Assembly (NCBI GenBank): GCA_964434195.1
Contig: CAYSUI010000001.1
Span: 79,833 to 143,832, forward strand
DNA from: an uncultured Candidatus Saccharibacteria bacterium
GTDB taxonomy: Bacteria > Patescibacteriota > Doudnabacteria > UBA920
DNA: 64,000 nucleotides
Direction of reading: 5' to 3'
Shown: in pieces, positions 121 to 58,752 of the stretch
How positions within the stretch are numbered: position 1 is the first letter of the stretch
Layout: each line of letters opens with the position of its first letter
Notes under the pieces: generated by a model
Database searches by the model: none
What the model was told of the DNA's origin: nothing
The model's input: only the letters and a program-made list of their open reading frames with translations
Program-made: the position numbers and the translations under genes

Positions 121-1011
121 TTATTTTTCGTAGTTTTCGACGAACTTGGGTCGGCCTTTTTTGGGTAAGGCTGAATTCCCCAGTTTTTCGATAACGATTT
201 GCTCTAAAGCCAGAATGTAAGTGGCCGCGTCTTGCTTCTCTTTTTCTTGAGCGGAGATAGTTGCGTCGCGTTGCTTACACCCACCACACTGAACGTTCAC
301 GGTAACAAAATCTCTCTTGAGATGTGGGGTAATTGTCTGCCCAGAACTTGCTTTACCAATCCTCCTAACCCGCACCACACCAACAGGCTCGATTTTCTTG
401 GCTCGTTTGTGAACGTCGATATCTTCGTGGGGTTTTGCTGTTGGCACGACATAGCGACGATGGACATGGAAGTTTACAATTCTGTAGAAGTTTACTTTGT
501 CGTAAACAGAGTATTGACTACAGTAATCCCTGAAGATTGAGTTGTAGTCTTTCTTCCTCTCGTCTGAGTTATCTTGGTAGATCGAAACCTGCAAAGTCAT
601 ATAACTGAGCGCTTCGTCACCAATGAGTAAGAAAGTCTCTTTCTCGAACAAACTTACCAATAACTCCCACATTCCAAGCGTCTTGCCGTTTGGTAAGTCG
701 TAGTGGCTTAGGAAGTCGTCGAGAGAATTGAACTTGTAGTCAAGCCAAAAACTTCCACAGGTTTTGAGCTTATTAAATACGAATACGCTGTCGTACTTGT
801 ATGACAAACCTTTCTCTCTTTGCTTGAAAAGTTCGGCGAGTAAGTCTTTAACCTCACTCGGGAGCTTCATTCTGTCTAGCTCCAATGTGAATGGTGTTCG
901 CCTGAGTGAGAGCCTTAGCTTGTCTTGAGGTTTTTGGTCGGAATGAACAATTCCGGGGATTCCCGCTGACCTTCTTTTTTCCGCGAATACTGTGAATACT
1001 TGTGCTTCCAA
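121..1011 (-). CDS. hypothetical protein, no recognisable motif; higher GC than surroundings
   Basis: 296-aa ORF, 12 nt downstream of the co-directional 1024..2064 ORF, so likely an operon. Own terminator. No family recognised by eye. Confidence 0.5.
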   Translation of the reverse strand: MEAQVFTVFAEKRRSAGIPGIVHSDQKPQDKLRLSLRRTPFTLELDRMKLPSEVKDLLAELFKQREKGLSYKYDSVFVFNKLKTCGSFWLDYKFNSLDDFLSHYDLPNGKTLGMWELLVSLFEKETFLLIGDEALSYMTLQVSIYQDNSDERKKDYNSIFRDYCSQYSVYDKVNFYRIVNFHVHRRYVVPTAKPHEDIDVHKRAKKIEPVGVVRVRRIGKASSGQTITPHLKRDFVTVNVQCGGCKQRDATISAQEKEKQDAATYILALEQIVIEKLGNSALPKKGRPKFVENYEK

Positions 1012-1023
1012 TTTGATCTCCTT

Positions 1024-2064
1024 TTAGATTGCTTCGAGGTTGTGTTGTTTCAAGACTTTTAACCTGTCTTGGTTTTTTTTAGCGAGATATAACGTTATGG
1101 CTTTTTGGTGCTTACCGCACACATGCCACTGACTGGTTTCTTCTTTGCTTACTTCACACCCAGGCACTGCGCATTTGGTCTCAGTCCAGCCCTTACAGAA
1201 CCGTAAGAATTCTGGAGAGTATTTGGACTTACTGTCTGAATGGTACTGCTGGTAGAAATGTGCGTGTTTTCTTGTGCAGAAATAATTTTGTTGCTTCCCT
1301 ACCCTAACTTTGGGGATGTCGAATTCTTCCCCGCAGAGAGAACACCTTACTTCTACCCTACTTCCGGACTTTACTGCGAGCTCTTGTCGGTTTAAATTGT
1401 GAAGAGCTTTTTTTCTTGATTCAGAACGATTCCATTCCGTTTTTTTATGTAAGTCGCAAGCAATACAGAAAGTGTCCCAACTGTAATTTCTATGGTCTTC
1501 TAGTTCCATAGTTTTACCACAGGAAAGACAGAATTCCAGATCGACGACTTTGCCACCCAAAGTTTCCGCCTTTTCCCTGAGTTGCCTTAACCATAAATAG
1601 ACTGTTTCGAGGGTTGAGTCACAGTAAACTGCAATGTGACCGTTTGAAGAGAAGCAGAATTTACCGCTTCTGTGAATTGTAAAATCGAAAGTTAGAACCA
1701 GGAAATCTTCCAGTCTTTCAGGTGCATGGAAACTCGGTTTACAGACAATATTTCCGGAAGGGAATTTTCCGTAACGTGGTTTCCATAACTGTCCAAACAC
1801 TTCTGGGTTTTGTAGGTCGAGCCTTGAAAGCCGAAGCGTTGGCGCGTCGCTATAGGAGAGGAAATGCTGATTCCCTTGTTCGTCTACAACAATTATGGAA
1901 GGTGTGCTGTTGAAGAACGGGAGAATATTCAGAGCATCTGGATCGTTATCTGCATTAGCCCTGATTTCTTTAATAGTATCTTCCTTACCCTTAAGCAGTT
2001 TCCAGACAGCGACTTGATCACAGCCTGGTTCACCTAAGAGATAAACTTTAGTACTGTCATTCAT
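1024..2064 (-). CDS. hypothetical Cys-rich protein with multiple CxxC pairs (putative multi-zinc-ribbon)
   Basis: 346-aa ORF. Pairs CLSCG..CIAC, CSLCG..C, CAVPGC..CGKH suggest several Zn-ribbon modules. Higher GC by eye. No catalytic motif recognised. Confidence 0.5.
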   Translation of the reverse strand: MNDSTKVYLLGEPGCDQVAVWKLLKGKEDTIKEIRANADNDPDALNILPFFNSTPSIIVVDEQGNQHFLSYSDAPTLRLSRLDLQNPEVFGQLWKPRYGKFPSGNIVCKPSFHAPERLEDFLVLTFDFTIHRSGKFCFSSNGHIAVYCDSTLETVYLWLRQLREKAETLGGKVVDLEFCLSCGKTMELEDHRNYSWDTFCIACDLHKKTEWNRSESRKKALHNLNRQELAVKSGSRVEVRCSLCGEEFDIPKVRVGKQQNYFCTRKHAHFYQQYHSDSKSKYSPEFLRFCKGWTETKCAVPGCEVSKEETSQWHVCGKHQKAITLYLAKKNQDRLKVLKQHNLEAI

Positions 2065-3056
2065 AGATTACCCCCTTTTGAAATGCTTTGTATTTATACC
2101 CGTTTGTCTCGGAATTGTCTATAATAAACAAAAGACTCCGCTGATGGCGGAGCCTTGATTTCTATTTGATACCCCACTCACAAGTGTAAGGTAACAGGCA
2201 TACGCCTATAAACCTTAACTTGGTGCTAATAGCAATCAGTAGGAGGGATCATGACTGCTTTCGCGACTTGCAAGTAGGGTGCCAAATAGAAACTGTGTTA
2301 AAAAATTACCCTTGAATTTATACCTCATTTTACTCTGATTTTGCTTTTTTGTCAATACCCATAAAAAAATAGAGTAAATACTCTATAAAATAGCCAAAAA
2401 TAGCGGTCGAGCGGTTTTTATACCGAGGGGAGCCACCCCACCTAGAACACAGGCTTTTAGCGGCTTATTAGCCTAGCATCGAGCTCGAGCGTGCTGGTGC
2501 CTGCGTCACATCCTTTAGTAACTTCTAGAGCTCCACTCTCTATTGTCTAACAACTCACATGCAGTGAGGAAGTACTAATTTTATCGGTAATCATCCCTAC
2601 TAATTATTAGTTTGGCGCCTCCGTTAAATTTTATACGTCTCCTAAGGGAAATACACCTCACACAATGCGAGGCTTCGGTGCCTTGTTGTTATATACCGAA
2701 TTCAGGCTCCCTAAAAGGGAATAGATAATTAAAACCCGTAGCCGCAGCTTGGGTTTATGGCCTCTGTCTTAACCGACGGGATTCTCGACCACAACCATAT
2801 TATACCTTCAAGCAACGGGATTGTATATTTTACTCCATCTTTCGTATTTTTTTGCTCTTTTTTTCTCCACCGGAGGGAGCACCCTTTATACCAGAACCGG
2901 CAAAGCCGGATTCTCGATATAAAGGGTTCGCTATTTACCCTGCCGCGTACGCCTCCAAAAAAAAGAACAAAAGAAATACGAAATCTGAAGAAAAATCTGC
3001 AATCGAACTTATATGAATATTAGAGAGTTGCGAGTTTTTGGGGGTGAGGGTATTGT
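2065..3056. other. ORF-free, GC-richer ~1-kb region with recurring TTTATACC octamer and AT-rich tracts; candidate structured ncRNA and/or regulatory or iteron-like array
   Basis: No ORF >60 aa except a low-complexity 88-aa frame. Exact TTTATACC at 2093, 2317, 2417 and 2885, with variants at 2629, 2690 and 2799. AT-rich tracts at 2833-2872 and 2954-3003. Divergent genes on both sides. Confidence 0.3.
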
Positions 3057-4136
3057 TTGGGCATGGAAATGGATATTTACAGACATATATTATATAGAGT
3101 AAATGAGTGGCGAGGAGCAGTTTTGGAAAAACTCATCTCTAAATTCGGAAACGAGCTATCGGTTTTGAAGGCTGATAAAAAAGCTTTAGTAGATTTTGGA
3201 TTAAGTGAGTTACTGGCTATTAGAATATCGGATGCTTTATCTAAATTTGAACCTGAGACTGAGCAAAACTTACTTAATAATCAGGGAATAAAAATTTTAT
3301 CTCCAAGCAATCCCAACTTCCCAACCCTACTGAGACAAGTAGATGATTCACCTGGGATACTCTATTACCGTGGAGATATCTCTATTTTGAGCAAGAGGTG
3401 TTTATCCGTAGTTGGCTCAAGAAGAGTGAGTGGTTATGGGCAAAGTGCTATGCAGAAAATATTTCCTCAGGTTGTCAAAAGTGAAATTGTTACTGTATCT
3501 GGCCTAGCTTATGGTGTAGATGGATTAATCGCAAAAATAGCTGTTGAAAACAAATTTCCAACAGTAGCTGTACTCGGAGGAGGTATAGACAAAAATAGCA
3601 TTTATCCTAAAACTCATGTATTACTTTCGGAAAGGATAATAGAAAATTGTGGATGCTTAGTTTCTGAATACCCACCTGGTACTCCCCCGCTCCCCCATCA
3701 TTTCGTAGCCAGAAATAGAATAATAGCCGGACTAAGCGAAGCTACCTTAGTAGTTGAAGCAGCCCAGAAAAGTGGCTCTCTAATTACAACAGATTTTGCT
3801 TTAAGTAACGGGAGAGATGTTCTTGCTATACCGAGCCCAATTACTAATGAAAATTCCGAAGGCAGTAACAAACTCATAAAGGATGGTGCGCGTGTGGTGA
3901 CATGTGCTCAAGATATACTTGAGATATATGGTATAGTAGAATCACAAGAAAATTCGCATGTACTTAACAAAATAGAAAGCGAATTGTTTGAAATAATCTC
4001 TAATCAACCCACAGAAGTGGACACCTTAATAGAACAATCTGGTTATAACTTTTCGGAAGTGCTTACTACAATAACTAATTTGGAGTTAATAAAATTAATT
4101 AAAAAACTACCAACTGGCGAATATATAAAAGTATGA
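3057..4136 (+). CDS. dprA: DNA processing protein DprA (Smf)
   Basis: Rossmann-like DprA core (SVVGSRRVSGYG...GLAYGVDGLIAKIA...LIT). Track start is TTG. An ATG at 3063 is an alternative start. Confidence 0.75.
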   Translation: MGMEMDIYRHILYRVNEWRGAVLEKLISKFGNELSVLKADKKALVDFGLSELLAIRISDALSKFEPETEQNLLNNQGIKILSPSNPNFPTLLRQVDDSPGILYYRGDISILSKRCLSVVGSRRVSGYGQSAMQKIFPQVVKSEIVTVSGLAYGVDGLIAKIAVENKFPTVAVLGGGIDKNSIYPKTHVLLSERIIENCGCLVSEYPPGTPPLPHHFVARNRIIAGLSEATLVVEAAQKSGSLITTDFALSNGRDVLAIPSPITNENSEGSNKLIKDGARVVTCAQDILEIYGIVESQENSHVLNKIESELFEIISNQPTEVDTLIEQSGYNFSEVLTTITNLELIKLIKKLPTGEYIKV

Positions 4137-5305
4137 ACGCTAAAAAAATAATACCGATTATTATCGGGATACTCTTTGCACTTGCAATTGCATTTGGCCT
4201 GATTCAAAGAAATAATAGTCCAGAACTTGAAAGCTTAAAGGCTTCACCGCAGCTTACAAGCCAGACAACCAATGGATCGTTTAACGATATTTTCCATACT
4301 GCGGAGAGTTTAAAAAATCAACAAGAGCAGGGAGTTCTCGCCACTACGTTTATTGCGGGTGGCGATATTAGTTTGTCTAGAAATATTGCTTATGTTATAG
4401 ACCAGAAAAAAGATCCATTAATTCCATTTTCTGGTGTAGCCAACCTATTATCATCAACTGATTTTAATTTCGCCAACCTGGAAACTCCATTTTCTAATTC
4501 TGATTTTTATACCCCTAAAAATACGCTAGTATTTAATGCACCGAAAAAAAATATTGAGGGGTTGGTGAAATACAATTTCAAAATAGTTAATCTTGCGAAT
4601 AATCATGCATTTGATCAGGGATTAATTGGTTTAAAGACAACGAGAGATTGGTTGGATAAAAATAATATTGCCCATATAGGAACCGGGGAAACTCTTACGG
4701 AAGCTAACACACCAAAAGTAGTCACGAGCAATGGAATAAGGATATTATTTATGGGATTTTCTTATTCTTCTATTAATGACGGAGGTAAAGCAAGAAATAA
4801 CTATGTAGCTCGTATGGAAGATTTTGTTGAGGATGTAAAATCTGGCAGTAATCCGGTGAGTTTCTGGAAAAAAGAGTTGGGAGCAGACTATGCGGTAGTA
4901 ACCATGCACGGTGGGATTGAATATACCAGACAACCAGATAAACTACAGACTGAGTTTGCAAGAAGCGCTATTGATGCCGGTGCGGATATGGTTATAGGCG
5001 CTCACCCACACTGGGTTCAAACAATAGAGAAATACAATGGAAGATATATATTTTATTCACTGGGAAATTTTATATTTGATCAAAATTGGAGCAAGGAAAC
5101 CTCTGAGGGGTTACTTTTAAAAATCAGCTTGAATAAAAAGCCTGTCTCAGAATTACAAGGCAACCCGGTTAATGCCCAACTCAAAGAAGTAGAACTGATA
5201 CCAATAATAATAGAGAACAACTCAACACCTAGACCAGCGAATGAGAAAGAGAGAATTGAAATATTAAAAAAAATAAAAATGGATACAAATAAACTGTATC
5301 CTTAA
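4133..5305 (+). CDS. CapA-family (poly-gamma-glutamate synthesis-like) metallophosphoesterase, membrane-anchored
   Basis: N-terminal transmembrane (TM) helix. Calcineurin-like phosphoesterase motifs (GGDISL, NLANNH, MHGGIEY, GAHPHWVQ) typical of the CapA/PgsA family. Confidence 0.7.
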   Translation: MNAKKIIPIIIGILFALAIAFGLIQRNNSPELESLKASPQLTSQTTNGSFNDIFHTAESLKNQQEQGVLATTFIAGGDISLSRNIAYVIDQKKDPLIPFSGVANLLSSTDFNFANLETPFSNSDFYTPKNTLVFNAPKKNIEGLVKYNFKIVNLANNHAFDQGLIGLKTTRDWLDKNNIAHIGTGETLTEANTPKVVTSNGIRILFMGFSYSSINDGGKARNNYVARMEDFVEDVKSGSNPVSFWKKELGADYAVVTMHGGIEYTRQPDKLQTEFARSAIDAGADMVIGAHPHWVQTIEKYNGRYIFYSLGNFIFDQNWSKETSEGLLLKISLNKKPVSELQGNPVNAQLKEVELIPIIIENNSTPRPANEKERIEILKKIKMDTNKLYP

Positions 5306-5593
5306 TTAACTTAACCAGGGATTTCTTGACCTTTGGGATTTTTCTGGAAGAACAAACCAGAAGAGGAAAATTGAAAAGAATATACAAATTGATCCCATAA
5401 GTAATGCACAAAAAAAATGGATTAATACAATTCCAATAGATTGTGCGATAACAATGGTTTTCACTAAAGCATTAGCTCCTGCAAAAATCATTAAAAAAGC
5501 CAATAACCAACACACAATTGAAAAAAGCCTAGATCCTAATTTCATATAGGGCCTCCGTGAAATTACTTTCAGAAATACTGATGAAGTTATCAC
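5306..5593 (-). CDS. small hydrophobic membrane protein (hypothetical)
   Basis: 95-aa ORF with two or three predicted TM helices. No homology recognised. Confidence 0.3.
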   Translation of the reverse strand: MITSSVFLKVISRRPYMKLGSRLFSIVCWLLAFLMIFAGANALVKTIVIAQSIGIVLIHFFCALLMGSICIFFSIFLFWFVLPEKSQRSRNPWLS

Positions 5594-5707
5594 AATAAAT
5601 AAAAAGTTTCAATAGAGCTTATTTGACAACACGTGAACCCGTATGTAGAATCTGTTTTGTTACTTAAATAAGTCGCAGTATACTTACAACATATATAAAA
5701 TATCTTA

Positions 5708-7993
5708 ATGTCTAAACCATTAATAATAGTAGAGTCTCCTACAAAAGCTAAAACAATTTCTAGATTCCTTTCGGGCCATTATGACGTAGAGGCGTCTTTT
5801 GGTCATGTAAGAGACCTACCTAAGAGTAAAATGGGTATAGATATAGAGCATAATTTTACCCCAACTTATACCATACCAACCAAGGCCAAGGAAACAATTA
5901 AGAATCTTAAAGCTAAAGCCAAAAATGCCTCTGAAATCATTCTCGCGACTGATGAAGACCGCGAAGGAGAAGCTATTTCTTGGCATTTAGTACAAGCGCT
6001 TGGATTAGGTGATGAAAAGGAAATAAATTCTGGAAAAGCAGACAAGCGAATAAAAAGAATAGTCTTTCATGAAATAACTAAAACTGCGATAGATCACGCG
6101 TTAAAAAACCCAAGAGAACTTGACTTAAATCTAGTAGACGCTCAGCAAGCCAGAAGAATCCTAGATAGACTTGTAGGCTATGAACTGTCTCCTTTCCTAT
6201 GGAAGAAAATTCGTTATGGTCTTTCTGCTGGCCGCGTACAAAGCGTAGCTGTGCGATTAATAGTAGAAAGAGAAAGAGAAATAGAAAAATTTGTATCGGA
6301 AGAATATTGGAGCATAGAAGCAGATCTTTCTAAAATTGGACAGAAACAAACTTTTACAGCAAAGCTCATAAAAATTGCCGACAGAAGCGTAGGCAAAATG
6401 GATATTAAAAATGAAACTGAATCGAAGGAAATTGTTAAAGATCTAGAAGGTGCTAGTTATACAGTAAAGGAAATTACTAAAAAGGAAGTAAGGAGAAATC
6501 CTTCTCCCCCATTCACAACCAGCACACTCCAACAGGAAGCTGCTAGAAAATTTGGCATGAGCGCAAAGCAAACTATGGTTATCGCTCAGCAATTATATGA
6601 AGGTATCCATTTACCTGGTGAAGGTGGTAGCACTGGTCTTATAACATATATGCGTACGGATAGTGTAAATATTGCTAAGACCGCGCTTGATCAGGCCAGG
6701 GAATTAATACTTTCAGAATTTGGTAATGACTATACTCTGACAGAACCAAGATTGTTTGCGAATAAGAGTAAGGGCGCACAAGAAGCCCATGAAGCAATTA
6801 GACCTACGGATCTTTTCAGAAAACCAGAGAGTGTAAAAGAGCATTTAGATAAAAACCAATATAAGATTTACGACCTTATCTGGAAAAGAACTATCGCATG
6901 CCAAATGACTAATGCTGTTTTGGACCATACGAGCGTAGATATTTCTGCAGATAAAGAGACTCGTAATTTTACTTTTAGAGCGAATGGTCAGGTAGTGAAA
7001 TTCGATGGATTTATTCGTGCATACACTGAAGGAACTGACGAAAAGAGTGAGGATGAGATAGAAGGAGCACTACCTGAACTCAGCGAAAATGAGAAACTCA
7101 ATCTACAAGAGCTAAAACCCTTACAACATTTTACTGAACCCCCACCAAGGTACAGTGATGCCACACTTATTAAAGCATTGGAAGCTCATGGTGTCGGCAG
7201 ACCTTCTACTTATGCACCTACATTAACTACAATTCAAGACCGAGGATACGCAGTCAAAGAAGACAAAAAGTATAGACCTACAGACGAAGGTGTACTTGTG
7301 AATGATATGTTAGTGGAAAACTTTCCAGAAATTGTGGATATTAACTTTACTTCACATATAGAAGAAGGTTTTGACGATATAGCTGAAGGAAAACAAAAGT
7401 GGGAACCAGTTATTGCAGAATTTTATACACCTTTTAAAGCTCATTTAATAGAAAAGGAAGCAACTGTTGAGAAGCAAATCAAGGAATCAACCACTCCTTG
7501 TCCACATTGTGGTAAGATGATGCTCATAAAGTTTGGTCGCATGGGTCAATTTTTAGCCTGCCCGGACCCTGAAAGCAAAATTACCCAACCTATGCCTGAA
7601 GAGGCGGCAAAAATAGCCGAACTAACAGATAAGACTAAAGGTGAGATTTGCCCTATTTGTTCTAAACCTATGGAAGTGAAACGTGGTAGATTTGGATATT
7701 TTCTTGGTTGCACAGATTACCCAAAATGCAAAGGTATTTCCAAAATTTGGAATAAACTTGGTTTTAAATGTCCTAATTGCCCTAACGTTGGCATTAACCC
7801 ACCCGGGGATATTGTAGAAAAAAAAGCGAGAGGCAGAGGTAAACCATTTTATGCATGTACTAAATACCCTGAATGTACGCTTATAATGAATAAGAAACCT
7901 GAAAGTGTAACCGAACTTCAGGAGTTATATGAGAATTGGAAGACAAATCCCCCAAAAACCAAAAAAAACTATAAGAAAAAAACATCCGCGTAA
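5708..7993 (+). CDS. topA: DNA topoisomerase I
   Basis: N-terminal Toprim domain (IVESPTKAKTI...GHVRDLP), topoisomerase IA core, and C-terminal array of four C4 zinc ribbons (CPHCG, CPICS, CPNC, CTKYPEC). Confidence 0.95.
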   Translation: MSKPLIIVESPTKAKTISRFLSGHYDVEASFGHVRDLPKSKMGIDIEHNFTPTYTIPTKAKETIKNLKAKAKNASEIILATDEDREGEAISWHLVQALGLGDEKEINSGKADKRIKRIVFHEITKTAIDHALKNPRELDLNLVDAQQARRILDRLVGYELSPFLWKKIRYGLSAGRVQSVAVRLIVEREREIEKFVSEEYWSIEADLSKIGQKQTFTAKLIKIADRSVGKMDIKNETESKEIVKDLEGASYTVKEITKKEVRRNPSPPFTTSTLQQEAARKFGMSAKQTMVIAQQLYEGIHLPGEGGSTGLITYMRTDSVNIAKTALDQARELILSEFGNDYTLTEPRLFANKSKGAQEAHEAIRPTDLFRKPESVKEHLDKNQYKIYDLIWKRTIACQMTNAVLDHTSVDISADKETRNFTFRANGQVVKFDGFIRAYTEGTDEKSEDEIEGALPELSENEKLNLQELKPLQHFTEPPPRYSDATLIKALEAHGVGRPSTYAPTLTTIQDRGYAVKEDKKYRPTDEGVLVNDMLVENFPEIVDINFTSHIEEGFDDIAEGKQKWEPVIAEFYTPFKAHLIEKEATVEKQIKESTTPCPHCGKMMLIKFGRMGQFLACPDPESKITQPMPEEAAKIAELTDKTKGEICPICSKPMEVKRGRFGYFLGCTDYPKCKGISKIWNKLGFKCPNCPNVGINPPGDIVEKKARGRGKPFYACTKYPECTLIMNKKPESVTELQELYENWKTNPPKTKKNYKKKTSA

Positions 7994-8006
7994 TCGGATG
8001 TTTTTT
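7981..8006. terminator. bidirectional terminator between convergent topA and NDH-2 gene
   Basis: Hairpin catccg-cgtaat-cggatg (7983-8000) followed by TTTTTT. Overlaps the stops of both genes. Confidence 0.5.
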
Positions 8007-9231
8007 AATCGTTTCTGGAAAATATTTCATATTCGAATATTGTGAGCATTGCAGCCCTCCACCAACCAAGGAAGTCTTTAAAAAACCAAAAATGAGCACA
8101 CTGTTTTGCAAAATAAGCCAACCTACCTGTTACATACCAATTACCATGCTTCATGATCGCCCACTGCCCCCCGATCATTATGACGTACCCATGAGGGGGG
8201 CAATTATATGCTGGGGGTTTTTGATTTTTTAACAGTAGTGGAAATATTCTTCCTAGGTATTCTGCATGTCTTATTGCAGACTGCGCAGTGGGAGGACTAA
8301 CGATACCATCTTGAGAGGTGAAGCAACTATTATCACCAAGCACGTAGGCATTTGAATAATCTTTAATCTGAAAATATTCATTAACTTTTATACGCCCCTT
8401 AGGGTCAATCTCTGTTTTTTGCACTATTGGAACTTGAGTAGACTTAACCCCGGCTGCCCAAATGAGAACATCATAGGTCTCTCGTTCACCATTTTTAAGC
8501 TCAAAGATACCAGGATCCACTTTAGAAATCAGACTCATTAAGGAAATCCTAACCCCCAGATCTCTCAATCTTTCACTAGCGTCTCTGCTGAGCCTAGAAT
8601 CTAACCCAGGAATGAGCTCGCTGGCACCCTCGATAACCTGAATTTCAATTTTCTCTCTTGGAAAGCCATTTTTCCATGCAACATGATTAACTAGCTTTAC
8701 CAACTCGCCAGCGACCTCAACACCAGTATACCCACCCCCTGCCACTACAATCCTAACCAGCTTCTTCTTTACATCGCTTCTACCTCTTTGGACTGAAAAT
8801 TCCACTGCGTTTTTTATTCGTAACGCATCTTGGAAGGTTTTAAGAGGTAAAGCATTTTCTTTTGCTCCTGCAATTCCAAAGTATTCACTTTCTGAACCTA
8901 GAGCTAGGAAAATATGCTCATATTCAATACTCTTAGATTGCATACTTACTGTTTTCTTTTGTAAGTCTATGCTCTTAACCTCAGCTTCTATAAAATTTAC
9001 ACCTAAATTCTTAAGTACTTTTGAGAGACTAAACGAGACACTTTTTTTAAGATCTTCCTGTGTAACTAATTCTTCTTCGGCTGTGGCTACTTCGTATATT
9101 TCCGGTGTAAACAAAAAAAATTCGGTTCTGTTAACCAAAGTTATATCACTCCCCTTAAAAAACCTGGCTAGTCTTTTAGCCAGAGTAAGACCCGCAAAGC
9201 CCCCACCTATTATTAAATATTTGGTTTTCAT
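8005..9231 (-). CDS. type II NADH dehydrogenase-like FAD-dependent pyridine nucleotide-disulfide oxidoreductase
   Basis: Two dinucleotide-binding motifs: IIGGGFAGLTLA at the N-terminus and IVVAGGGYTGVEVAGE in the middle. NDH-2-like length of 408 aa. Confidence 0.75.
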   Translation of the reverse strand: MKTKYLIIGGGFAGLTLAKRLARFFKGSDITLVNRTEFFLFTPEIYEVATAEEELVTQEDLKKSVSFSLSKVLKNLGVNFIEAEVKSIDLQKKTVSMQSKSIEYEHIFLALGSESEYFGIAGAKENALPLKTFQDALRIKNAVEFSVQRGRSDVKKKLVRIVVAGGGYTGVEVAGELVKLVNHVAWKNGFPREKIEIQVIEGASELIPGLDSRLSRDASERLRDLGVRISLMSLISKVDPGIFELKNGERETYDVLIWAAGVKSTQVPIVQKTEIDPKGRIKVNEYFQIKDYSNAYVLGDNSCFTSQDGIVSPPTAQSAIRHAEYLGRIFPLLLKNQKPPAYNCPPHGYVIMIGGQWAIMKHGNWYVTGRLAYFAKQCAHFWFFKDFLGWWRAAMLTIFEYEIFSRND

Positions 9232-9259
9232 AGGTATTACTATATCTCCGAGAATAGGC

Positions 9260-9817
9260 TTACTTTAAACCTGATTCTGTTAAAGAGTGCCTACCTCCAG
9301 TGACACTTCCTGTTTTGTCGCTTACACAGAAAGTGATCGTATATTTATCGGTAGCTGAAGAGGTATAGACATAATCGTTCCAAGTAAAACTACCATTTGC
9401 CTCGCTACAACGCGAACCTGCTGGTAGAGAACCGTCATCTGCTGGCTTTGGAGAAGGCTGAAATTGAGCCAAATAGACTGTACCAGAGGCTACAGAGGTT
9501 AGACCTATACCACCGTTTGGAGAAACTCCATTACTTGTCCCGCAAGTTGTTGCCGTACCACTATATAAAGAAAGGCTACCACTTAATACAATGGGACCGG
9601 TTTGTGGAAAACCATTACACGTATTTTGATATAACGACAAAGCACTAGCTAGTTGAGTTACATCGCTTAATCTCTTTGCATTCCTGGCTTTAGTTCTCGA
9701 ATTCGAAAGCGCAACCAATACGACAGATGCGAGCAGGCCAATAATGGCAATAACTACTAAGAGTTCTATAAGTGTAAAACCTTTTGTGGAAAAATTTTGT
9801 TTCTTTAGACCTTGCAT
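9260..9817 (-). CDS. type IV pilin-like protein (prepilin with class III signal peptide)
   Basis: N-terminus KGFTLIELLVVIAIIGLLASVV is the canonical prepilin cleavage/methylation motif (G|FTLIE). Confidence 0.85.
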   Translation of the reverse strand: MQGLKKQNFSTKGFTLIELLVVIAIIGLLASVVLVALSNSRTKARNAKRLSDVTQLASALSLYQNTCNGFPQTGPIVLSGSLSLYSGTATTCGTSNGVSPNGGIGLTSVASGTVYLAQFQPSPKPADDGSLPAGSRCSEANGSFTWNDYVYTSSATDKYTITFCVSDKTGSVTGGRHSLTESGLK

Positions 9818-14876: not shown

Positions 14877-16285
14877 GTTATCGAAATATGAATAAACAAT
14901 CTCCCAAAGGTAGGAAGCGTATGCTTGAGGGCGTTCTTTCGAGCGTTGCAGAGTTTTTCTCTTTGCAAAGTGGAGAAAAAGTAAAAACAGGCATGAAGCA
15001 AAAACTTAAAGAAGGCCTTTGGCCGACTGGAGCATCGTACGGATACAAGAACGTGCGAGAAAAATTATCTACTGGTAAAGTGCGTTCTTGGGTGGAAATA
15101 AATTGGGAAGAAGCTAAATGGGTAATTCGAGCTTTTGAATTATTCGCTACGGGTAATTATTCCACCATATCTCTCGCCCAAATACTTCGCCAGGAAGGGT
15201 TTCCAGTAAGAAAATATAAGAGAGGGAATGACAAATTACATGCAAGCTTTATCGAAAGGCTTTTACGCAATAAGTTTTTTATAGGCATTATCGAATGGGA
15301 CGGCCTTGTTAATCCCAATGGTAAACATGAGCTCTTTTTAGACCGTCAACTTTTCGACAAAGTACAAAGTATCTTAGATATGCGTCTAGGTGGAGGTAGC
15401 AGAAAGCGTAAGCATTTTTCTATACTTAAAGGCCCTGCTTTCTGCCAAGAGTGCAATAGCAGGATTACAATGGATGTTAAAGAAACTACTACTCAAACTA
15501 TACGATACCTTCGTTGTTTGAAGTCACAAAATAGCGAGCGTGTTCAGTGCTCCCAGGAGTACCCCCATGAACTAGAGATTCTAAAGCAAGTAGACGAATT
15601 ACTTAGGCAAATAAAACTCAAAGATACCTTTGTTATAAAATTACGGAAACGTATTAGAAAAACGTTTGCCGATGAGCAGCAGGTTTATGAAAGAGCGCGA
15701 ATGGATATTTTGAATATAACAGAAGAAATAAAACGCAAGAAAAAGAATCTTGTTCTACAAATGATAAGCAAGGACAACGCTTCAACAGAAGACTTGGACA
15801 TATTTGCGAGCGTCCAAGACGAGCTTAATGTTGAAGAGAAGTACCTTAATGAACAACTGGAGAAAATTGAAAATAAAATTACCAGCGTGGTTAGAACGAT
15901 TCAGATTGCATTAGCTATCGCCACAGACTGCCATTATGCGTACAAAAAGGCTGAACCAGAATTGAAGGCTATGCTTATACAGACATTATTCAAAAAGATT
16001 TATATTCGGGACAAACAAATAACCCAAGTAGTTCTAAATGAACCCTTGGATTATTTGTGTCTAAAGAGGTTACAGAAAAACCCCGTATTCGATTTAACTT
16101 CAAATGGTGGGTCGAGTGGGGATCGAACCCACGACAAACGGCTTAAAAGGCCGCTGGCGCTATATACCTGGGATCCGGTAAACCGGCCCCAGGACGTGAA
16201 CAACGGCAAAGCCGCTGTTCACTCCCTAAAGGGGTATTCGCAGCGGCTTAAAATTTGTATCCAAAATTTTTACTTGGTGGGCTGA
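14858..16285 (+). pseudogene. large serine recombinase lacking the N-terminal catalytic (resolvase) domain
   Basis: Begins inside the alphaE region (VAEFFSLQSGEKVKTGMKQ) followed by the recombinase-domain motif GLWPTGASYGYKN, a Cys zinc ribbon (CQEC...C...C) and a coiled-coil. No catalytic Ser domain upstream. The 3' end reads through a tRNA-Lys fragment, so the true stop is unclear. Confidence 0.55.
16106..16156. repeat. 51-nt partial copy of the tRNA-Lys 3' half (att-like direct repeat)
   Basis: tggtgggtcgagtggggatcgaacccacgacaaacggcttaaaaggccgctg matches the 3' 51 nt of the tRNA-Lys gene at 16423-16473 with about 3 mismatches. Lies 267 bp distal to the intact tRNA. Confidence 0.75.
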
Positions 16286-16386
16286 GTGGGTTTACTATAT
16301 ATCGCCCCGAAGTGGATTCGGGGCAGAACCCAGAACCGGGAAACCCGGATTCTGGGTTCTTGTTCGATCCCTTAACTAATATCAAC
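16275..16386. repeat. att-like module: tRNA-Lys 3'-core copy, ctatatat, nested hairpins and a gttcgatccc motif
   Basis: tggtgggctgagtgggt at 16275-16291. Nested hairpin gaacccagaa-ccggg-aaa-cccgg-a-ttctgggttc. Same module architecture as 11321-11478. Confidence 0.5.
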
Positions 16387-16429
16387 CAATAATAAAACCT
16401 CCTGCACCGGAGGTTTTATTATTGGTGGG
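16387..16429. repeat. 43-nt direct repeat, right copy; overlaps the 3' end of tRNA-Lys
   Basis: Identical to 11588-11630. Its last 7 nt (tggtggg) are the CCA and acceptor end of tRNA-Lys on the minus strand. Confidence 0.8.
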
Positions 16430-16498
16430 TTCGGTGGGGATCGAACCCACGACAAACGGCTTAAAAGGCCGCTGCTCTACCGACTGAGCTACGAACCC
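16423..16498 (-). tRNA. tRNA-Lys (anticodon TTT), CCA encoded
   Basis: The reverse complement of 16423-16498 folds as a cloverleaf. Acceptor GGGTTCG/CGAACCC, anticodon stem GCGGC/GCCGT, anticodon loop CTTTTAA, T-loop TTCGATC, 3' ACCA. Confidence 0.9.
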
Positions 16499-16760
16499 TC
16501 GTCATACTTGTTTCCGGGTTGCGCGAGCCGTCTGCTATCGCAGACAACTCACTCCACCCTACACCAAGTACTCCTCTTCCCCAAATACCTTATTGCTATG
16601 GTTTTAAAAAGACTCTTCGAATCTTTTTAAAACATTAAGGTAATCAAGCTATTTGGGGGACCCCCGTATGGGGAAAGGGATATTTGAAACGATCTTTCAT
16701 AGTTTACTGAAAAGTGGAGAAAAATTCAAGGGAATAAAAAATACGCTATTTTAGCGTAGG

Positions 16761-44560: not shown

Positions 44561-46405
44561 ATGATCAGTGATTCTGATACAAAAAATATGACTGACCGCC
44601 CCGGGAGTGGTTCTCGTATTAGCCGTATGATAGGGAGCAGGCCTAGACCTACAACCCCTCAGCGTACAACAAACAATCCCGAAACCTCAGCAGTAGCAAC
44701 TGCTGTCCAGCCAACTAGCAGATATACACAATCTCGCACCAATTTAAAAATTACACCTTTTGGTGGCCTAGAAGAAGTAGGTGCGAATATGATGGTATAT
44801 GAGTTTGGGGAAGATATTATTATTGTCGATATGGGACTAGCATTTCCAGATGAAACCACTCCAGGTATCGACTATATAATTCCTGACACCAAATGGCTTG
44901 AAGAAAGAAAGCGCAATATCCGTGGAATTCTTATAACTCACGGACACATGGACCACATAGGAGCTATTCCTTATATCTTACCTAAAATAGGTGATCCACC
45001 TATTTACACACTCGCCCTCTCCGCTGGGCTTATTCGTAAGCGTTTGGAAGAGTTTAATATGGCAAGTCGTGCCAAAATAAATGTTATTACTAAAGATGAT
45101 ATTTTACCTTTAGGTGCATTTAAAATTAGACCATTTATAGTTAACCACAATATTCCTGATTCTGTTGGATTCTGTATTTCCACTCCAGTTGGACAAGTTG
45201 TTCACACTGGTGACTGGAAATTAGATCATACTCCGGTTAACGAAAAGCCTACTGAGTTTCATAAAATTGCTCGTTTTGGTAGCGAAGGGGTCATGCTTCT
45301 TTGTTCAGACTCAACTAACGCCGCTAAACCCGGTTATTGTCAGTCTGAGAAAGAACTAGGTATTACCATAGACAGAACTTTTTCTGAAGCAAAGGGTAGA
45401 GTGATTTTTGCTTCATTCTCATCTTTAGTTTCTCGTATGCAACAGGTTATAGATATATCTGCCAAGTACAACAGAAAAGTATTGGTTACCGGAAGAAGCA
45501 TGGTAAATAACCTAGAAGTAGCTATGGCTGTTGGTGCGATAAAAATTCCACCAAAACTTATAATTAAGTCTGAACAAGCAAAAAAGTATCCAGATAACCA
45601 AATCACCATACTTACAACTGGTGCCCAGGGTGAAGAAGCAGCTGGCCTTGCAAGAATGGCAAGAGGCGAACATAAAACTGTTCGTATTAAGCAGGGTGAT
45701 ACTGTAGTAATATCCGCCTCCCCTATTCCAGGTAATGAAAGAAGTATAGTTGCTGTACTAGATAACCTAATCCGCGAAGGCGCAAACGTTATCTATAATA
45801 AAGTATTAGATATTCACACATCCGGACACGCACAACAGGAAGAACTTAAACTTATGATGAGTTTAGTTAAACCAAAGTTCTTTATGCCCATACACGGCGA
45901 ACACCATATGCTTGCTACCCATGGTAAGTTGGCACAATCTATTGGTTTTACTGATGACCGCATAAAAATAATGGAAAATGGTGACACCTTAGAAATAAAT
46001 TCTGCTGGTGAAGCCAAGAGAATTGAAAACGCAGTACCTACAGGATATGTATTCGTAGATGGCCTTGGTGTGGGAGATGTAGGAGAAGTTGTTATTCGTG
46101 ATAGACAAGTAATGGCCACAGACGGTATGTTTGTAATAATACTTACCCTAGATCGAAGAAGCGGTAAAATGGTTAACCAACCAGACATACTCTCCAGAGG
46201 CTTCATTTACATGAAGAACAACGAAGATATTATTCGCGAAGTAAAACATGAGGTTAGAAAAATGGTAGACACTCATGGGAATAAGAAAAACCTTGAACCT
46301 AACTGGGCATACCTTAGACAAGTAGTTAGAGACGAAATTGGTGAATATCTATTTCAAAAAACTAACCGCAGACCAATGATTCTACCAGTAGTTATAGAGG
46401 TCTAA
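44561..46405 (+). CDS. rnj: ribonuclease J (metallo-beta-lactamase / beta-CASP family)
   Basis: HGHMDHIGAIPYIL (HxHxDH), beta-CASP motifs, and C-terminal domain. About 60-aa S/T/P/R-rich N-terminal extension before the conserved ITPFGGLEEVGANMMVYE start. Confidence 0.9.
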   Translation: MISDSDTKNMTDRPGSGSRISRMIGSRPRPTTPQRTTNNPETSAVATAVQPTSRYTQSRTNLKITPFGGLEEVGANMMVYEFGEDIIIVDMGLAFPDETTPGIDYIIPDTKWLEERKRNIRGILITHGHMDHIGAIPYILPKIGDPPIYTLALSAGLIRKRLEEFNMASRAKINVITKDDILPLGAFKIRPFIVNHNIPDSVGFCISTPVGQVVHTGDWKLDHTPVNEKPTEFHKIARFGSEGVMLLCSDSTNAAKPGYCQSEKELGITIDRTFSEAKGRVIFASFSSLVSRMQQVIDISAKYNRKVLVTGRSMVNNLEVAMAVGAIKIPPKLIIKSEQAKKYPDNQITILTTGAQGEEAAGLARMARGEHKTVRIKQGDTVVISASPIPGNERSIVAVLDNLIREGANVIYNKVLDIHTSGHAQQEELKLMMSLVKPKFFMPIHGEHHMLATHGKLAQSIGFTDDRIKIMENGDTLEINSAGEAKRIENAVPTGYVFVDGLGVGDVGEVVIRDRQVMATDGMFVIILTLDRRSGKMVNQPDILSRGFIYMKNNEDIIREVKHEVRKMVDTHGNKKNLEPNWAYLRQVVRDEIGEYLFQKTNRRPMILPVVIEV

Positions 46406-46448
46406 GGAAACGATAAATAAAACCCCCTCAGTCAGAGGGGGTTTTATT

Positions 46449-48944
46449 TTACTTGATTGGGTCAGCGAGTGTGTAAGACCCTACTGATCCTTGGAGAACT
46501 TTTAGCTTTCGCTTATTGGTTCTTAAATATTCGGTGTAGCTACGTAGGGTTGTGAAAGGGTGTAAACCGTCTGGCTGAACCAAATATATTGCGGGAGCAT
46601 CCTTAAACTTAACTATATCCCCACCCTTAACACCTTCGGGCAATGAAACTTGAACCCCGAGAATACTCCCCTCTTCTTCTAAAACGGACTGTGCGGAATC
46701 GGAAAAGATAGTAAACTTTTCTGGATTATCTTTTATTACCCTTAGCCGTTTATTTGTTTTGTTTAAATAATTTTTGTAAGAAGTGTAAGTATCGAATGGG
46801 TACAAACCTTCTGGTTTTACTAAGTAAACAGTCGGTTTGTTATTGAATTTTATAAGATCACCTTCTGCTACCGCATAAGGAAGCACGACTCCGTTCGTTA
46901 CCACCTGACCAAGAGTACTAAATGACTCATCATGGTAAATTGCTAAATTTCCCGAAGCGTCTTTACTAGTAACCCTAAAGTGGTAAGTTGTGTTCCTCTT
47001 GAGATTCTTTAGAGTGAACCTATGGTTAAGAGTTAGGGCACTTTGAATTCCGGTTTTTTTGCCATAATTTGTACTTGTACCATATTCAACTTGACCATCC
47101 GCTGGCTCGTTTGTGTCCCAGGATATAACAGCACTACTCCTGGTTACTTCGGTTATCTGCAGGTTTGTTATTTGCGGTGGTGTAGTATCTACAGGTGATG
47201 GCGGAGGAGGAGTAGGTGTTGGAGTTGGTGTTGGAGTAGGTGTTGGAGTTGGTGTTGGAGTTGGGGTTGGGGTTGGAGTTGGGGTTGGGGTTGGAGTTGG
47301 GGTTGGGGTTGGAGTTGGAGTGGGTGTTGAACCTTGGGCAGTAAGTATTGCGTCTACATTAGCTCCTAAATCTTTTGCGTCAGTACCTGCATTTTTATAA
47401 GTGGAAGTACTGAGCAAGCGGTAATCGCCACCAATTCCATTATTATAATTCACAAATCCAATTGCACTGAAACTAGCTGGAGAGAAATTTCCTGAAGGAT
47501 ACACAGCGGAATTGCTTCCAACAATTGCATTCTTCTGAAAAACATAACCCGGCATATAATTGTTCAAAGTATCAGTACCAGATCCACGATTATCTCCTTT
47601 GAATCCATATGGACCTTCTGCAAGGATATTATTAGTGAATGTAAAATTTGTGGTCTGATCTCCATAAACTGAGCCTGCATTCCCGCTATTAAAAACGGTG
47701 TTGTGGTCCAAAGTTAACCCATTGACCCCACTAATCTGAACAAATACTCCATTTCCACCATACTTTCCACCGTCGATATCCTCAAAAACATTGTTTACAA
47801 TCGCAACATTATTTAATCTTACAGCTGTTTTTCCACCATAAGCTTCTATGCCTGCGAGATTAATACCTGCACCACTCCGTTTAACAATATTATTCGAAAA
47901 AGTAATATCACCGCTATGACAAAGATCACACCCACCATCTTGATTGGTCGATTTTAAAATCATAGCATAACCACTCTGTGCATCTGCCCAATTATTCTCG
48001 AAAATATTTCCATCTATCAGCATCCTTTGGGCGTTTTTAGTTTCGAACAAATTTTTTACGGTCCAATGATAACCTTTATACGAAGGGTCTCCTACTCTCC
48101 AATCAAAAGGTTTTTTGAAATGATTTCTCCTAATCTCAAAATCTGAAGGGACCAATCCGGCTATCGTAGGATCTGCGCCTCCAAAAATTATATTTTCCCC
48201 TGCTCCTTCTAGGTAGTTATTTACGATCTTGAAAGGACCACTACCGTTCCAACCCGCTATTGCCTGTGAATCTGCTCCTATTTCATGACAATCAGAAACA
48301 TATGAATCTATTACAGCTGTACTAGCACTGTTTAAAGCGAAGCATCTTCTAACATTTTGTGTTGGTGATCCATGAACGTAAACTCGATCAAAAATAAGAT
48401 TATGAGGAAGATTACTCACAGAAGTTTCGTCGTTCCCTAATCTAACCAAACCATATTGAGTAAAACCGCCTGCGTTTGCGTCCGCAACTGCACTAGAAGT
48501 TAGACTAATTTCAACGCCGATAAATCGATAGTGGTGAGCGCCAGGACTAGTCGTAATAGCCCCTGCTACGTTTGGAGTAAGGATTTTAGCCATTTGGCTT
48601 GAGCTAGAAGGAGTCACACGAACCCCCTCTGCCCCACTAAAACCCTGAGTGGTAATTACAATCCAGGAATTTCCTGATTTATTAGGTAAATTAAAGTTTC
48701 CAGTGTACGTAGCACCAGGAGCTAGTGAAATAATCGTACCCGGTGCCGCATTATCTATTGCTGCTTGCAGGTCCCCACCGGATGCAAGGTTTATAGTAGG
48801 CCCCGAAGGTGCTGTATATGATGTATTCAGATAAGCCTGGGGTAATGCTGGAGTCACCGCAGCGTAAACAGGTGACTTATTAGGTAGTATTGCAGCAGCT
48901 ACGAGGATTACAAGACCTAAAAGCATAGAAGGGGTTCTTCTCAT
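46449..48944 (-). CDS. secreted surface protein: signal peptide, right-handed beta-helix, (TP)n linker, FN3-like domain, duplicated C-terminal domain
   Basis: Signal peptide MRRTPSMLLGLVILVAAAIL. Parallel beta-helix repeats (NNVFEDIDGG.., NNILAEG..). About 25 TP repeats. FN3-like segment (VEYGTSTNYG...TTYHFRVTSKDASGN). Two repeats of GDhhKFxxxPxhYLVxPxGLxPF. Confidence 0.65.
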   Translation of the reverse strand: MRRTPSMLLGLVILVAAAILPNKSPVYAAVTPALPQAYLNTSYTAPSGPTINLASGGDLQAAIDNAAPGTIISLAPGATYTGNFNLPNKSGNSWIVITTQGFSGAEGVRVTPSSSSQMAKILTPNVAGAITTSPGAHHYRFIGVEISLTSSAVADANAGGFTQYGLVRLGNDETSVSNLPHNLIFDRVYVHGSPTQNVRRCFALNSASTAVIDSYVSDCHEIGADSQAIAGWNGSGPFKIVNNYLEGAGENIIFGGADPTIAGLVPSDFEIRRNHFKKPFDWRVGDPSYKGYHWTVKNLFETKNAQRMLIDGNIFENNWADAQSGYAMILKSTNQDGGCDLCHSGDITFSNNIVKRSGAGINLAGIEAYGGKTAVRLNNVAIVNNVFEDIDGGKYGGNGVFVQISGVNGLTLDHNTVFNSGNAGSVYGDQTTNFTFTNNILAEGPYGFKGDNRGSGTDTLNNYMPGYVFQKNAIVGSNSAVYPSGNFSPASFSAIGFVNYNNGIGGDYRLLSTSTYKNAGTDAKDLGANVDAILTAQGSTPTPTPTPTPTPTPTPTPTPTPTPTPTPTPTPTPTPTPTPPPPSPVDTTPPQITNLQITEVTRSSAVISWDTNEPADGQVEYGTSTNYGKKTGIQSALTLNHRFTLKNLKRNTTYHFRVTSKDASGNLAIYHDESFSTLGQVVTNGVVLPYAVAEGDLIKFNNKPTVYLVKPEGLYPFDTYTSYKNYLNKTNKRLRVIKDNPEKFTIFSDSAQSVLEEEGSILGVQVSLPEGVKGGDIVKFKDAPAIYLVQPDGLHPFTTLRSYTEYLRTNKRKLKVLQGSVGSYTLADPIK
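47211..47335. repeat. 12-nt tandem repeat (ggtgttggagtt)n encoding the Thr-Pro linker
   Basis: About ten near-perfect tandem 12-mers on the plus strand, complementary to ACNCCN codons on the coding strand. Confidence 0.8.
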
Positions 48945-57963: not shown

Positions 57964-58129
57964 ACTAGCCTCCGGATTGAATGTTTAGGAAAGTTTAAAA
58001 TTTATTATGCATAAAATTTAGCTATAGGTCAAGGGAGTGACAAAACTCATTGCAAATGCTAGAATTAAGCACAAATTAATCATATTCGCCCATTTTTATG
58101 ATGGGTGATGTAGAAAGGGAAACTTTCTC

Positions 58130-58651: not shown

Positions 58652-58752
58652 CTAGTAAAAAGTTCATCGAGTTCTTAAAGTTAAAAAGTTATTGAAGGGT
58701 AAGACTTTACGAACTTTATTAACTTTACAAACTTTATTAACAAAAAAAGCAT

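Follow-up and report, generated by a model that had tools for sequence, protein, structure and literature searches.

The DNA analysed here is a stretch of 64,000 nucleotides (nt) from an uncultured Candidatus Saccharibacteria bacterium, which we call the window. At positions 2065-3056, between a gene pair on the minus strand and dprA, it contains a region of 992 nt for which no credible gene could be named, and we wanted to investigate what this region is. It is the largest gap in the window between open reading frames (ORFs) of at least 90 amino acids (aa), and the longest frame within it is a low-complexity ORF of 88 aa (2757-3023). An initial annotation had described the gap, this frame and the flanking genes correctly, and had proposed that the kilobase was either a large structured RNA of an unrecognised class or an array of protein-binding sites marked by a recurring octamer, TTTATACC. 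We found that the anomaly is real. The region does contain a structured RNA of an unrecognised class, but this is a small RNA (sRNA) of about 190 nt, not about 1 kb, and its gene takes up one fifth of the kilobase. The kilobase as a whole is probably a composite, to be read on the minus strand, of the conserved sRNA gene, a promoter and slot for variable cargo genes, and a lineage-specific palindromic insert. The juxtaposition of these three produces, as by-products, both the octamer array and the apparent 1-kb unit.

We assessed the predicted folding of the region on both strands. The 957 nt at 2100-3056 folded with -316 kcal/mol on the minus strand (z -8.8 against shuffles) and with -275.6 kcal/mol on the plus strand (z -5.1), and the signal was confined to two modules. 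The first of them, at 2122-2322, is the sRNA and reached -74.5 kcal/mol on the minus strand (z -8.4) and -56.7 kcal/mol on the plus strand. The second is the palindrome of the insert (2815-3008), with -81.2 kcal/mol on the minus strand, -66.2 kcal/mol on the plus strand and z of about -7.5 on both. The 438 nt that separate the modules were not clearly structured (z -1.5 on the minus strand, -3.7 on the plus strand). In the predicted core of the sRNA a long closing stem, P1, carries two arms, of which P2 is a hairpin and P3 a bipartite hairpin.

To describe the distribution of the sRNA we refer to fetched comparison loci by L-numbers; L004 (the sister strain) and L006 come from near-identical strains. 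Close relatives were few, and the DprA protein of the nearest other lineage, L011, was only 53% identical. This locus is syntenic with the window (Der ... pth - dprA - PGA_cap - topA), and its pth and dprA are 250 nt apart. The spacer contains a copy of window 2155-2291, 84% identical over a match of 137 nt. The copy has its own promoter, TTGACA-17-TATAAT, on the minus strand as in the window, and its own terminator. Folded alone, it gave the same architecture with -73.2 kcal/mol.

We built a covariance model, R1, from the sRNA sequences of the window and L011. In the window R1 scored 173 bits when the minus strand was searched, against 31 bits for the plus strand, and therefore we place the sRNA on the minus strand. 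L011 scored 159 bits. Further, we obtained 137 bits in L022, where the sRNA lies between an inserted three-gene cassette and dprA, and 63 and 48 bits in L023 and L024, where it is directly beside pth. L026-L029 scored 29 bits; they have a shortened form upstream of pth, which in L026 is without one arm. Homologues were found in five further Saccharibacteria lineages, each of them adjoining pth and/or dprA. Judged by these matches, the sRNA is conserved in at least six lineages of a Saccharibacteria clade.

Pairing was retained among the homologues. In the model-based alignment of 7 sequences, 27 of the 49 base pairs showed compensatory double changes that kept the pairing. Paired cells made up 96.8% of the alignment, compared with 33-44% in controls with slid partners, and none of 500 column shuffles reached the observed values. 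Alignment with MAFFT and folding with RNAalifold, performed without the model, agreed in the closing stem and in the arms and counted 25 compensated pairs. Conservation and covariation in relatives, which the initial annotation had named as a check on its structured RNA, were thus observed for 2156-2298 on the minus strand, the only part of the region that behaves as a conserved structured RNA, and were not observed for 2358-3056.

The predicted signals around the sRNA are those of an independent unit, as expected of a trans-encoded sRNA: it has its own promoter and Rho-independent terminator, and its downstream context varies (Table 1). The promoter reads TTGACA-16-TATAAT in L023 and TTGACA-16-TACGGT in L024. 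A GC hairpin with a U-tract stands at the terminator position also in L011, L022 and L023, and sites resembling terminators and promoters bracket the sRNA in the window and in L011, L022, L023 and L024. MIPPTDCY, encoded on the minus strand, and MTAFATCK, encoded on the plus strand, are two small ORFs within the sRNA; neither was conserved in L011, L022 or L023, and both were rejected as candidates. On these comparative grounds we regard the element as a new conserved stand-alone sRNA gene, and its assignment to a new RNA family is well supported. We found no literature describing such an RNA in Saccharibacteria or Patescibacteria, or regulatory RNAs in the Candidate Phyla Radiation (CPR). The new covariance model could join RNA family databases.

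Table 1. Features predicted or read in and beside the region; positions are those of the window, and minus-strand signals are given in the direction of transcription.
Feature	Position	Strand	Remarks
Stand-alone sRNA gene ("RNA2")	~2320-2125	-	Predicted transcript of ~195 nt: A/U-rich 5' leader, three-way-junction core, terminator
sRNA promoter, TTGACA-17-TAAAAT	2355-2327	-	11 of 12 consensus positions
Conserved sRNA core, three-way junction	2298-2156	-	Covariance model and compensatory changes
P1 closing stem, 27 bp	2292-2266 with 2185-2159	-	Consensus fold
P2 apical loop, 13 nt, UGAUCCCUCCUAC	2252-2240	-	Core CCCUCCU
sRNA intrinsic terminator	2156-2132	-	10-bp stem with 6 GC pairs, then UUUUGUUU
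Octamer at the sRNA start	2317-2324	- (reading)	4 nt after the TAAAAT box of the sRNA, at or just past the predicted start site
Cargo operon promoter, TAGACA-17-TATAAA	2121-2093 (TAGACA 2121-2116; TATAAA 2098-2093)	-	Followed by the 5' untranslated region (5'UTR) AUUUCAAAAGGGGGUAAUCUAUG
Octamer in the cargo promoter	2093-2100	- (reading)	-10 box of the cargo promoter, GG at -14/-13
Two-gene cargo, 346-aa Cys-rich protein and 296-aa protein	121-2064	-	Inserted operon, context only
Non-coding insert, ~700 nt	2358-3056		Between sRNA promoter and dprA; octamer-like copies at 2417, 2630, 2690, 2799 and 2885
A/U-rich terminator-like hairpin, AUAGAGUA-UUU-ACUCUAU, then U7	2385-2362	-	Edge of the insert nearest the sRNA; read from the sequence
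Promoter-like site, TATACA-17-TATAAT	2827-2799	-	-10 box is the one-mismatch octamer at 2799; no sign of use
Imperfect palindrome of 186 nt ("hairpin B"), MITE/ERIC-like	2819-3004	-	Arms 2819-2864 and 2959-3004
Inner cassette, 104 nt	2832-2935		Replaced by a different sequence of the same length in L004, and in L006 as far as its contig reaches
Apex hairpin AGAAUCCGGCUUUGCCGGUUCU, 22 nt	2914-2893	-	Apex of the palindrome; 9 bp, one bulged U

Known RNA classes did not account for the region. At gathering thresholds Rfam 15 (including GOLLD, ROOL, OLE, HEARO, raiA and introns) returned nothing but tRNAs over the window, and at E up to 10 only chance-level matches of at most 21 bits were obtained over 1900-3200. 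The sRNA homologues of L024 and L026 had no Rfam match either, even at E up to 10. ARAGORN found no tmRNA, and no tRNA within the region. The initial annotation, which had seen no signatures of RNase P, tmRNA, signal recognition particle RNA, 6S RNA or introns, was therefore borne out by Rfam 15 and ARAGORN. A likeness of CGACGGGAUU to the 5' end of tmRNA was a passing resemblance and was dismissed. Comparison by blastn with phage and plasmid collections gave no DNA similar to the region, and none of the viral contigs scanned with 20-29-mers from various parts of it matched. Two descriptions of the region itself had to be amended. Its GC content had been taken to exceed that of both flanks, and we measured 0.414 in the region, 0.432 in the minus-strand genes to its left and 0.368 in dprA (0.393 in the whole window). 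The statement that spacers otherwise measure tens of nt was roughly right, but under the same ORF criterion the window has several further gaps of 400-830 nt, some of which carry tRNAs.

The part of the sRNA that points to a role is the loop of P2. Its core, CCCUCCU, was invariant across all homologues aligned; next to the loop of the window, UGAUCCCUCCUAC, we observed UCAUCCCUCCUAC in L022, ACCCCUCCUUG in L023, AACCCUCCUUG in L024 and AAACCCCUCCUAU in L026. CCCUCCU is the perfect complement of AGGAGGG and is anti-Shine-Dalgarno-like. The 3' tail of E. coli 16S rRNA reads GAUCACCUCCU, and CCCUCCU resembles this anti-Shine-Dalgarno tail. The loop would act as an anti-Shine-Dalgarno mimic, and the sRNA would regulate in trans by pairing with G-rich ribosome-binding sites and blocking the initiation of translation. 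One plausible target would be the AAAGGGGG ribosome-binding site of the adjacent cargo operon.

These properties recall the C-rich-loop sRNAs of Gram-positive bacteria (RsaE/RoxS and the UCCC hairpins of RNAIII), which likewise have their own sigma-70-type promoter, an intrinsic terminator and stable hairpins exposing a conserved C-rich sequence complementary to the Shine-Dalgarno sequence. The host lineage is not known to have Hfq, which is a further likeness. The sRNA described here differs from them in being larger, in its 27-bp closing stem and three-way junction, and in showing no similarity in sequence or model. Its single 7-nt CCCUCCU is nearer to the 16S tail GAUCACCUCCU than to the short UCCC motifs.

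A wider role for the sRNA can be proposed, although we consider it rather unlikely. The sRNA would be a mimic of the 16S 3' tail that globally tunes translation initiation in these ultra-small bacteria, which are poor in regulators, and its gene would mark a hotspot of cassette insertion under sRNA control. The invariant loop GAUC-CCUCCU was likened to the anti-Shine-Dalgarno tail of 16S rRNA in this sense. The sRNA would compete with ribosomes for Shine-Dalgarno sequences or, alternatively, would act as a decoy that draws off a factor or toxin specific for the anti-Shine-Dalgarno tail. Toxin, defence-like and orphan cassettes would all be controlled through the common AAAGGGGG ribosome-binding site. 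Genomes are tiny and transcription factors few in Saccharibacteria and other CPR bacteria, which live as epibionts. A conserved, covarying sRNA with an anti-Shine-Dalgarno-like loop offers a testable entry into post-transcriptional control in Saccharibacteria.

We then compared what lies downstream of the sRNA. Relative to L011, the operon of the 346-aa and 296-aa proteins is an insertion that separates the end of pth from the sRNA 3' end. In L022 the same slot (5492-9708) encodes three proteins: an unknown one of 760 aa, one of 496 aa with an EndoU nuclease domain at its C-terminus, and one of 80 aa, which is possibly the immunity partner of the EndoU protein. Gene order in these loci, that is synteny, shows the gap between the 3' ends of pth and the sRNA as a slot for variable cargo. 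At the position matching the cargo promoter L022 carries TGATATACT, followed by a near-identical 5'UTR in front of the unrelated 760-aa gene. Promoter and 5'UTR are similar in both cargo operons (ATTTCAAAAGGGGGTAATCTATG in the window, ATTTCAAAGGGGGAAATTATG in L022), and the AAAGGGGG ribosome-binding site is common to them. The slot resembles genomic islands linked to tRNA or tmRNA genes in that variable cargo, the orphan pair in the window and a polymorphic EndoU toxin cassette in L022, lies directly 3' of a stable-RNA gene in otherwise syntenic genomes. It differs from them in having no integrase and no att-type duplication of the sRNA 3' end, and its cargo is tiny (2-4.5 kb). The pth / sRNA / dprA locus could serve as a marker for a small variable-cargo slot with toxin-like cassettes coming and going.

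Since the sRNA precedes such cargo, it might be read as a cis-acting leader, a riboswitch or attenuator, of the downstream operon. About 60-90 nt past the terminator, both the window and L022 have the start of a co-oriented operon, whose G-rich ribosome-binding site is conserved; the AAAGGGGGGGG motif is found downstream of the sRNA in L023 as well, and in L026 the sRNA is upstream of pth on the same strand. However, L011 and L024 have no co-oriented gene downstream, pth converging on the sRNA there, and in the window a separate promoter, TAGACA-17-TATAAA, stands between the sRNA terminator and the cargo gene. A leader role is therefore unlikely. The cargo is, moreover, wholly different from lineage to lineage. 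We retain the reading of the sRNA as a stand-alone gene.

Two of the loci with sRNA homologues have features of their own. In L026 an ORF-free spacer of 870 nt beside pth (4504-5375) contains the shortened sRNA homologue at 4699-4802 and also about 570 nt of further non-coding DNA without assignment, much as in the window. In L023, past the sRNA terminator (6098-6178, minus strand), the AAAGGGGGGGG motif is followed by a possible GTG-initiated ORF of 26 codons. It has a hydrophobic stretch, MMCISFLCAAV, and could encode a small toxin-like peptide; L011 showed no counterpart.

Further, we analyzed the octamer. The four exact copies stand where they had been reported (2093, 2317, 2417 and 2885). 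Of the one-mismatch copies, those at 2690 and 2799 were also as reported, the one placed at 2629 starts at 2630, and a copy at 2166 had been overlooked. All eight are on the plus strand. Their clustering is non-random: any 8-mer with at least four copies appeared in 11 of 5000 Markov simulations of the region, and eight copies with at most one mismatch were above every simulation (mean 0.95, maximum 6). The enrichment is weaker than had been claimed, and the expectation of one copy per 65 kb does not hold, as the window has 7 exact copies against 3.85 expected from shuffles. Only two other places in the window have any 8-mer at four or more copies per 1 kb. One is GTTGGAGT, with 8 copies in 1 kb at about 46400-47300, within an 831-aa ORF (46449-48944, minus strand), presumably a tandem amino-acid repeat. 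The other is TAGAAGAA, with 4-5 copies in 1 kb at about 57700-58700, where the clustering is comparable to that of the octamer.

Read on the minus strand the octamer is GGTATAAA, which contains a TATAAA hexamer with G at -14/-13. A role as -10 box or start-site position fits well for three copies, at 2093, 2317 and 2799, as judged from the predicted promoters (Table 1). The copy at 2317 aligns opposite the TATAAT of L011. All octamers are co-oriented and match the direction of transcription of all units on that side, and the tRNA-Leu gene at about 43.7 kb is preceded by TTGACC-16-TATAAA with GG in front of the hexamer. The copy at 2166 lies in the closing stem of the sRNA. Those at 2417, 2630, 2690 and 2885 have no -35 box, mostly follow short hairpins and have G at -14 except for 2630. 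For the remaining copies the -10 reading is only a guess; they may function weakly or cryptically as promoters, or have arisen by chance within A/T-rich stems. A striking motif count in a long spacer can arise from unrelated elements that share promoter-like boxes.

The octamers could alternatively be binding sites (iterons, operators or a centromere-like array) for a protein of the adjacent operon, such as the 346-aa Cys-rich protein. Eight copies in one orientation within 1 kb, beyond what simulation produced, speak for this, as do the position of several copies directly after short hairpins or palindromes and the Zn-ribbon-like CxxC motifs of the neighbouring proteins. We nevertheless regard such an array as quite unlikely. 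The conserved unit is only 8-9 nt, and successive copies are 73 to 224 nt apart, without regularity. The homologous gene pairs of L007, L009 and L010 are preceded by short stretches that carry no array. Three of the copies sit in elements that exist without the gene pair, as L011 shows for the sRNA gene with its promoter. No Rep, ParB or helix-turn-helix domain and no structural match was found in the neighbouring proteins, one copy is lost in the L004 allele, and there is no origin-like switch of GC skew.

With the iteron arrays of plasmids and phages the region shares several co-oriented copies of a short motif near A/T-rich tracts. Iterons, however, are regular repeats of about 17-22 bp beside a rep gene, whereas here the motif has 8 nt, its spacing is irregular, no Rep protein is encoded and the sRNA gene with its promoter contains some of the copies. 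A replication origin was rejected, as GC skew tracks gene orientation and no Rep, primase or ParB domain was found in the proteins encoded next to the region. A DnaA box, TTATCCACA, was not noticed when the sequence was read; no pattern search for DnaA boxes was made.

The sRNA could also be a divergent housekeeping RNA of the clade, 6S RNA foremost, in which case it would not be a new family. Its size of about 190 nt, the long closing stem formed by its 5' and 3' ends, its conservation on the chromosome and its strong predicted promoter agree with this, and we found nothing relevant in the literature on 6S RNA of Patescibacteria. Still, this is very unlikely: three divergent members were compared with Rfam at E up to 10, and neither RF00013 nor any other family matched. 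Further, the fold has two hairpins branching from a three-way junction, where 6S RNA has coaxial stems around a central bubble resembling an open promoter, and the L026 form is without one arm. In 6S RNA (RF00013), length, terminal stem and a conserved chromosomal gene are alike; the branched core without a central bubble or model match is not, and the invariant part of the sRNA is a hairpin loop. A new sRNA family remains the preferred assignment.

The rest of the region, between the sRNA promoter and dprA, is the insert. Because the ATG of dprA in L011 and L022 lies only about 20-25 nt from the -35 box of the sRNA, so that the insert is missing there, 2358-3056 is lineage-specific. Among the 25 other fetched loci we found no homologues of it, save for the 22-nt apex of a hairpin. 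All six frames of 2341-3060 contained 7-12 stops each, with no Pfam match at E up to 1. A pseudogene or frameshifted ORF was rejected on these grounds, which also speak against the frameshift-corrected ORF spanning the region that the initial annotation had allowed for. The terminator-like hairpin at the edge of the insert appears in predicted folds and was missed by a terminator scan biased towards GC.

At its other end the insert carries the long palindrome. The arms, of 46 nt, are 76% complementary and have the form of terminal inverted repeats. The hairpin ccggcaaagccgg at 2897-2909, noticed earlier, proved to be the palindrome's apex. The mirror copy of the octamer is real: 2881-2890 and 2918-2927 are perfect inverted repeats of 10 nt. 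Together with the octamer at 2885, this mirror at 2918-2927 makes up the palindrome's inner stem, one on each side, and both are gone in the allele of L004. The cassette of L004 folds to the same inner hairpin with exchanged pairs (AUAUC/GGUAU to CGGUU/AACCG; CCGGC/GCCGG to CAGGC/GCCUG), and this allele is without the outer A/U-rich stem of the palindrome. Direct and inverted alignments of the two cassettes were both poor, which indicates replacement and not a flip, and inversion was rejected. The insert, with its long imperfect palindrome and a swappable inner cassette, is shown to be lineage-specific.

By its form the insert would be a remnant or copy of a small non-autonomous repeat-type element, MITE- or ERIC-like, and would carry promoter-like -10 boxes and a terminator insulating the sRNA promoter. 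With ERIC/IRU, Correia/NEMIS and MITEs it shares an imperfect intergenic palindrome of 100-200 nt near promoters, promoter-like boxes, and internal segments that differ between strains. The label of a mobile repeat element is an analogy, not a demonstration. Recurrence of the 22-nt apex upstream of tRNA and 23S genes, described below, is not a known property of these elements.

Several points weigh against the composite reading or parts of it. Unlike the elements just named, the insert showed no target-site duplication at its flanks when the sequence was read, and there is only one full copy of the palindrome in 64 kb, together with one of the apex alone. The insert is 96-100% identical among the window, L004 and L006, which can be explained by a recombination tract that L004 and L006 have in common, from about 1450, inside the 346-aa gene, to beyond 2850. 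Because this tract covers the spacer, the identity is weak evidence for selection, and conservation of the insert was given up as a sign of it. Covariation in the sRNA comes from 7 sequences in 5 well-aligned lineages, and the count of double changes used an alignment fitted to the model. A usable -35 box precedes just two of the eight octamer-like copies, and the copy at 2885 is the one lost in L004. GGTATAAW is rare in the other intergenic DNA of the window (1 of 8 copies); therefore it is not the general promoter form of this genome. We infer the function of the sRNA from one conserved loop alone. The predicted duplexes between this loop and the ribosome-binding sites of the 346-aa gene (-10.4 kcal/mol) and dprA (-10.5 kcal/mol) rank just 6th and 5th among 53 genes, so that the modelled complementarity to the neighbours is good but generic, not special.

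The least probable explanation is a single large structured RNA of a new class, transcribed on the minus strand over the whole kilobase or over 2125-2830, in which the sRNA would be the 3' domain: the strong fold of the 957 nt, a correctly oriented promoter-like site at 2827-2799 and a body 98-100% identical among three strains would agree with it, but the excess stability comes from the palindrome and the sRNA only, relatives have the sRNA alone with its own promoter adjoining dprA, the sRNA is set off from the middle by a near-consensus promoter and the A/U-rich terminator, the nine substitutions in this middle lack a compensatory pattern, and the recombination tract explains the identity of the strains.

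In the composite reading the apex hairpin of the palindrome deserves separate description, as it occurs elsewhere. Written as AGAATCCGGCTTTGCCGGTTCT at 2914-2893, it recurs in the window at 16353-16332 with the loop-closing pair flipped. An exact-pattern scan found AGAATCCGGCTTTGCCGGTTCT in 10 metagenome contigs (L012-L021; for example L014 9071-9092 and L019 3264-3285). In seven loci, which represent five distinct sequences, the apex lies 40-75 nt upstream of a tRNA or 23S rRNA gene on the same strand, and L021 has a second, one-off copy about 12 nt upstream of the contig's tRNA. The metagenome copies are often flanked by GA...GA, and in L014 and L017 about 50 nt downstream of the apex are common to both, before different tRNAs. 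Because it has a bulged U and no G-U pair, the apex does not by itself define a strand. No Rfam family matched it and no known element was assigned. The apex hairpin may represent a leader of stable-RNA genes, or an element proximal to their promoters, that has not been described before.

The spacer downstream of the tRNA-Lys gene (16423-16498, minus strand) was also unusual. Within 16100-16500 it has two partial copies of the tRNA 3' end, one at 16108-16169 (a 33-bit tRNA in Rfam) and one of about 20 nt at 16268-16290. Between them lie hairpins, which include the second apex copy and a TATATACC box. This spacer looks like scars of serial integration at tRNA-Lys, or decayed duplications of a hairpin plus tRNA.

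We also searched for relatives of the cargo proteins. The 346-aa protein is a near-orphan, with one cluster at 90% identity among 5.8 billion and about four full-length relatives in an exhaustive profile search, and the 296-aa protein has four relatives. Homologues of the gene pair elsewhere are without a long upstream spacer and lie next to a tRNA gene (L007) or beside an ECF sigma factor (L009); L008 has only the 296-aa homologue, in a phage-like region. The 5' half of the 346-aa gene (1024-2064) is the part of the locus that varies most among the window and the near-identical strains L004 and L006, with 84-95% nucleotide identity, and the N-terminal half of the protein shows many amino-acid changes among them. 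A sharp recombination breakpoint lies near 1450, and beyond it L006 falls to 55-70% identity.

On the other side of the region, DprA of the window (3057-4136) has 357-359 aa and an N-terminal domain of about 70 aa. In the lineages that share the sRNA (L011, L022, L023, L024 and L026) DprA has 285-299 aa and is without this domain. A TTGCGA-17-TATTGT sequence ends just before the dprA ATG at 3063, and the dprA mRNA could be leaderless.

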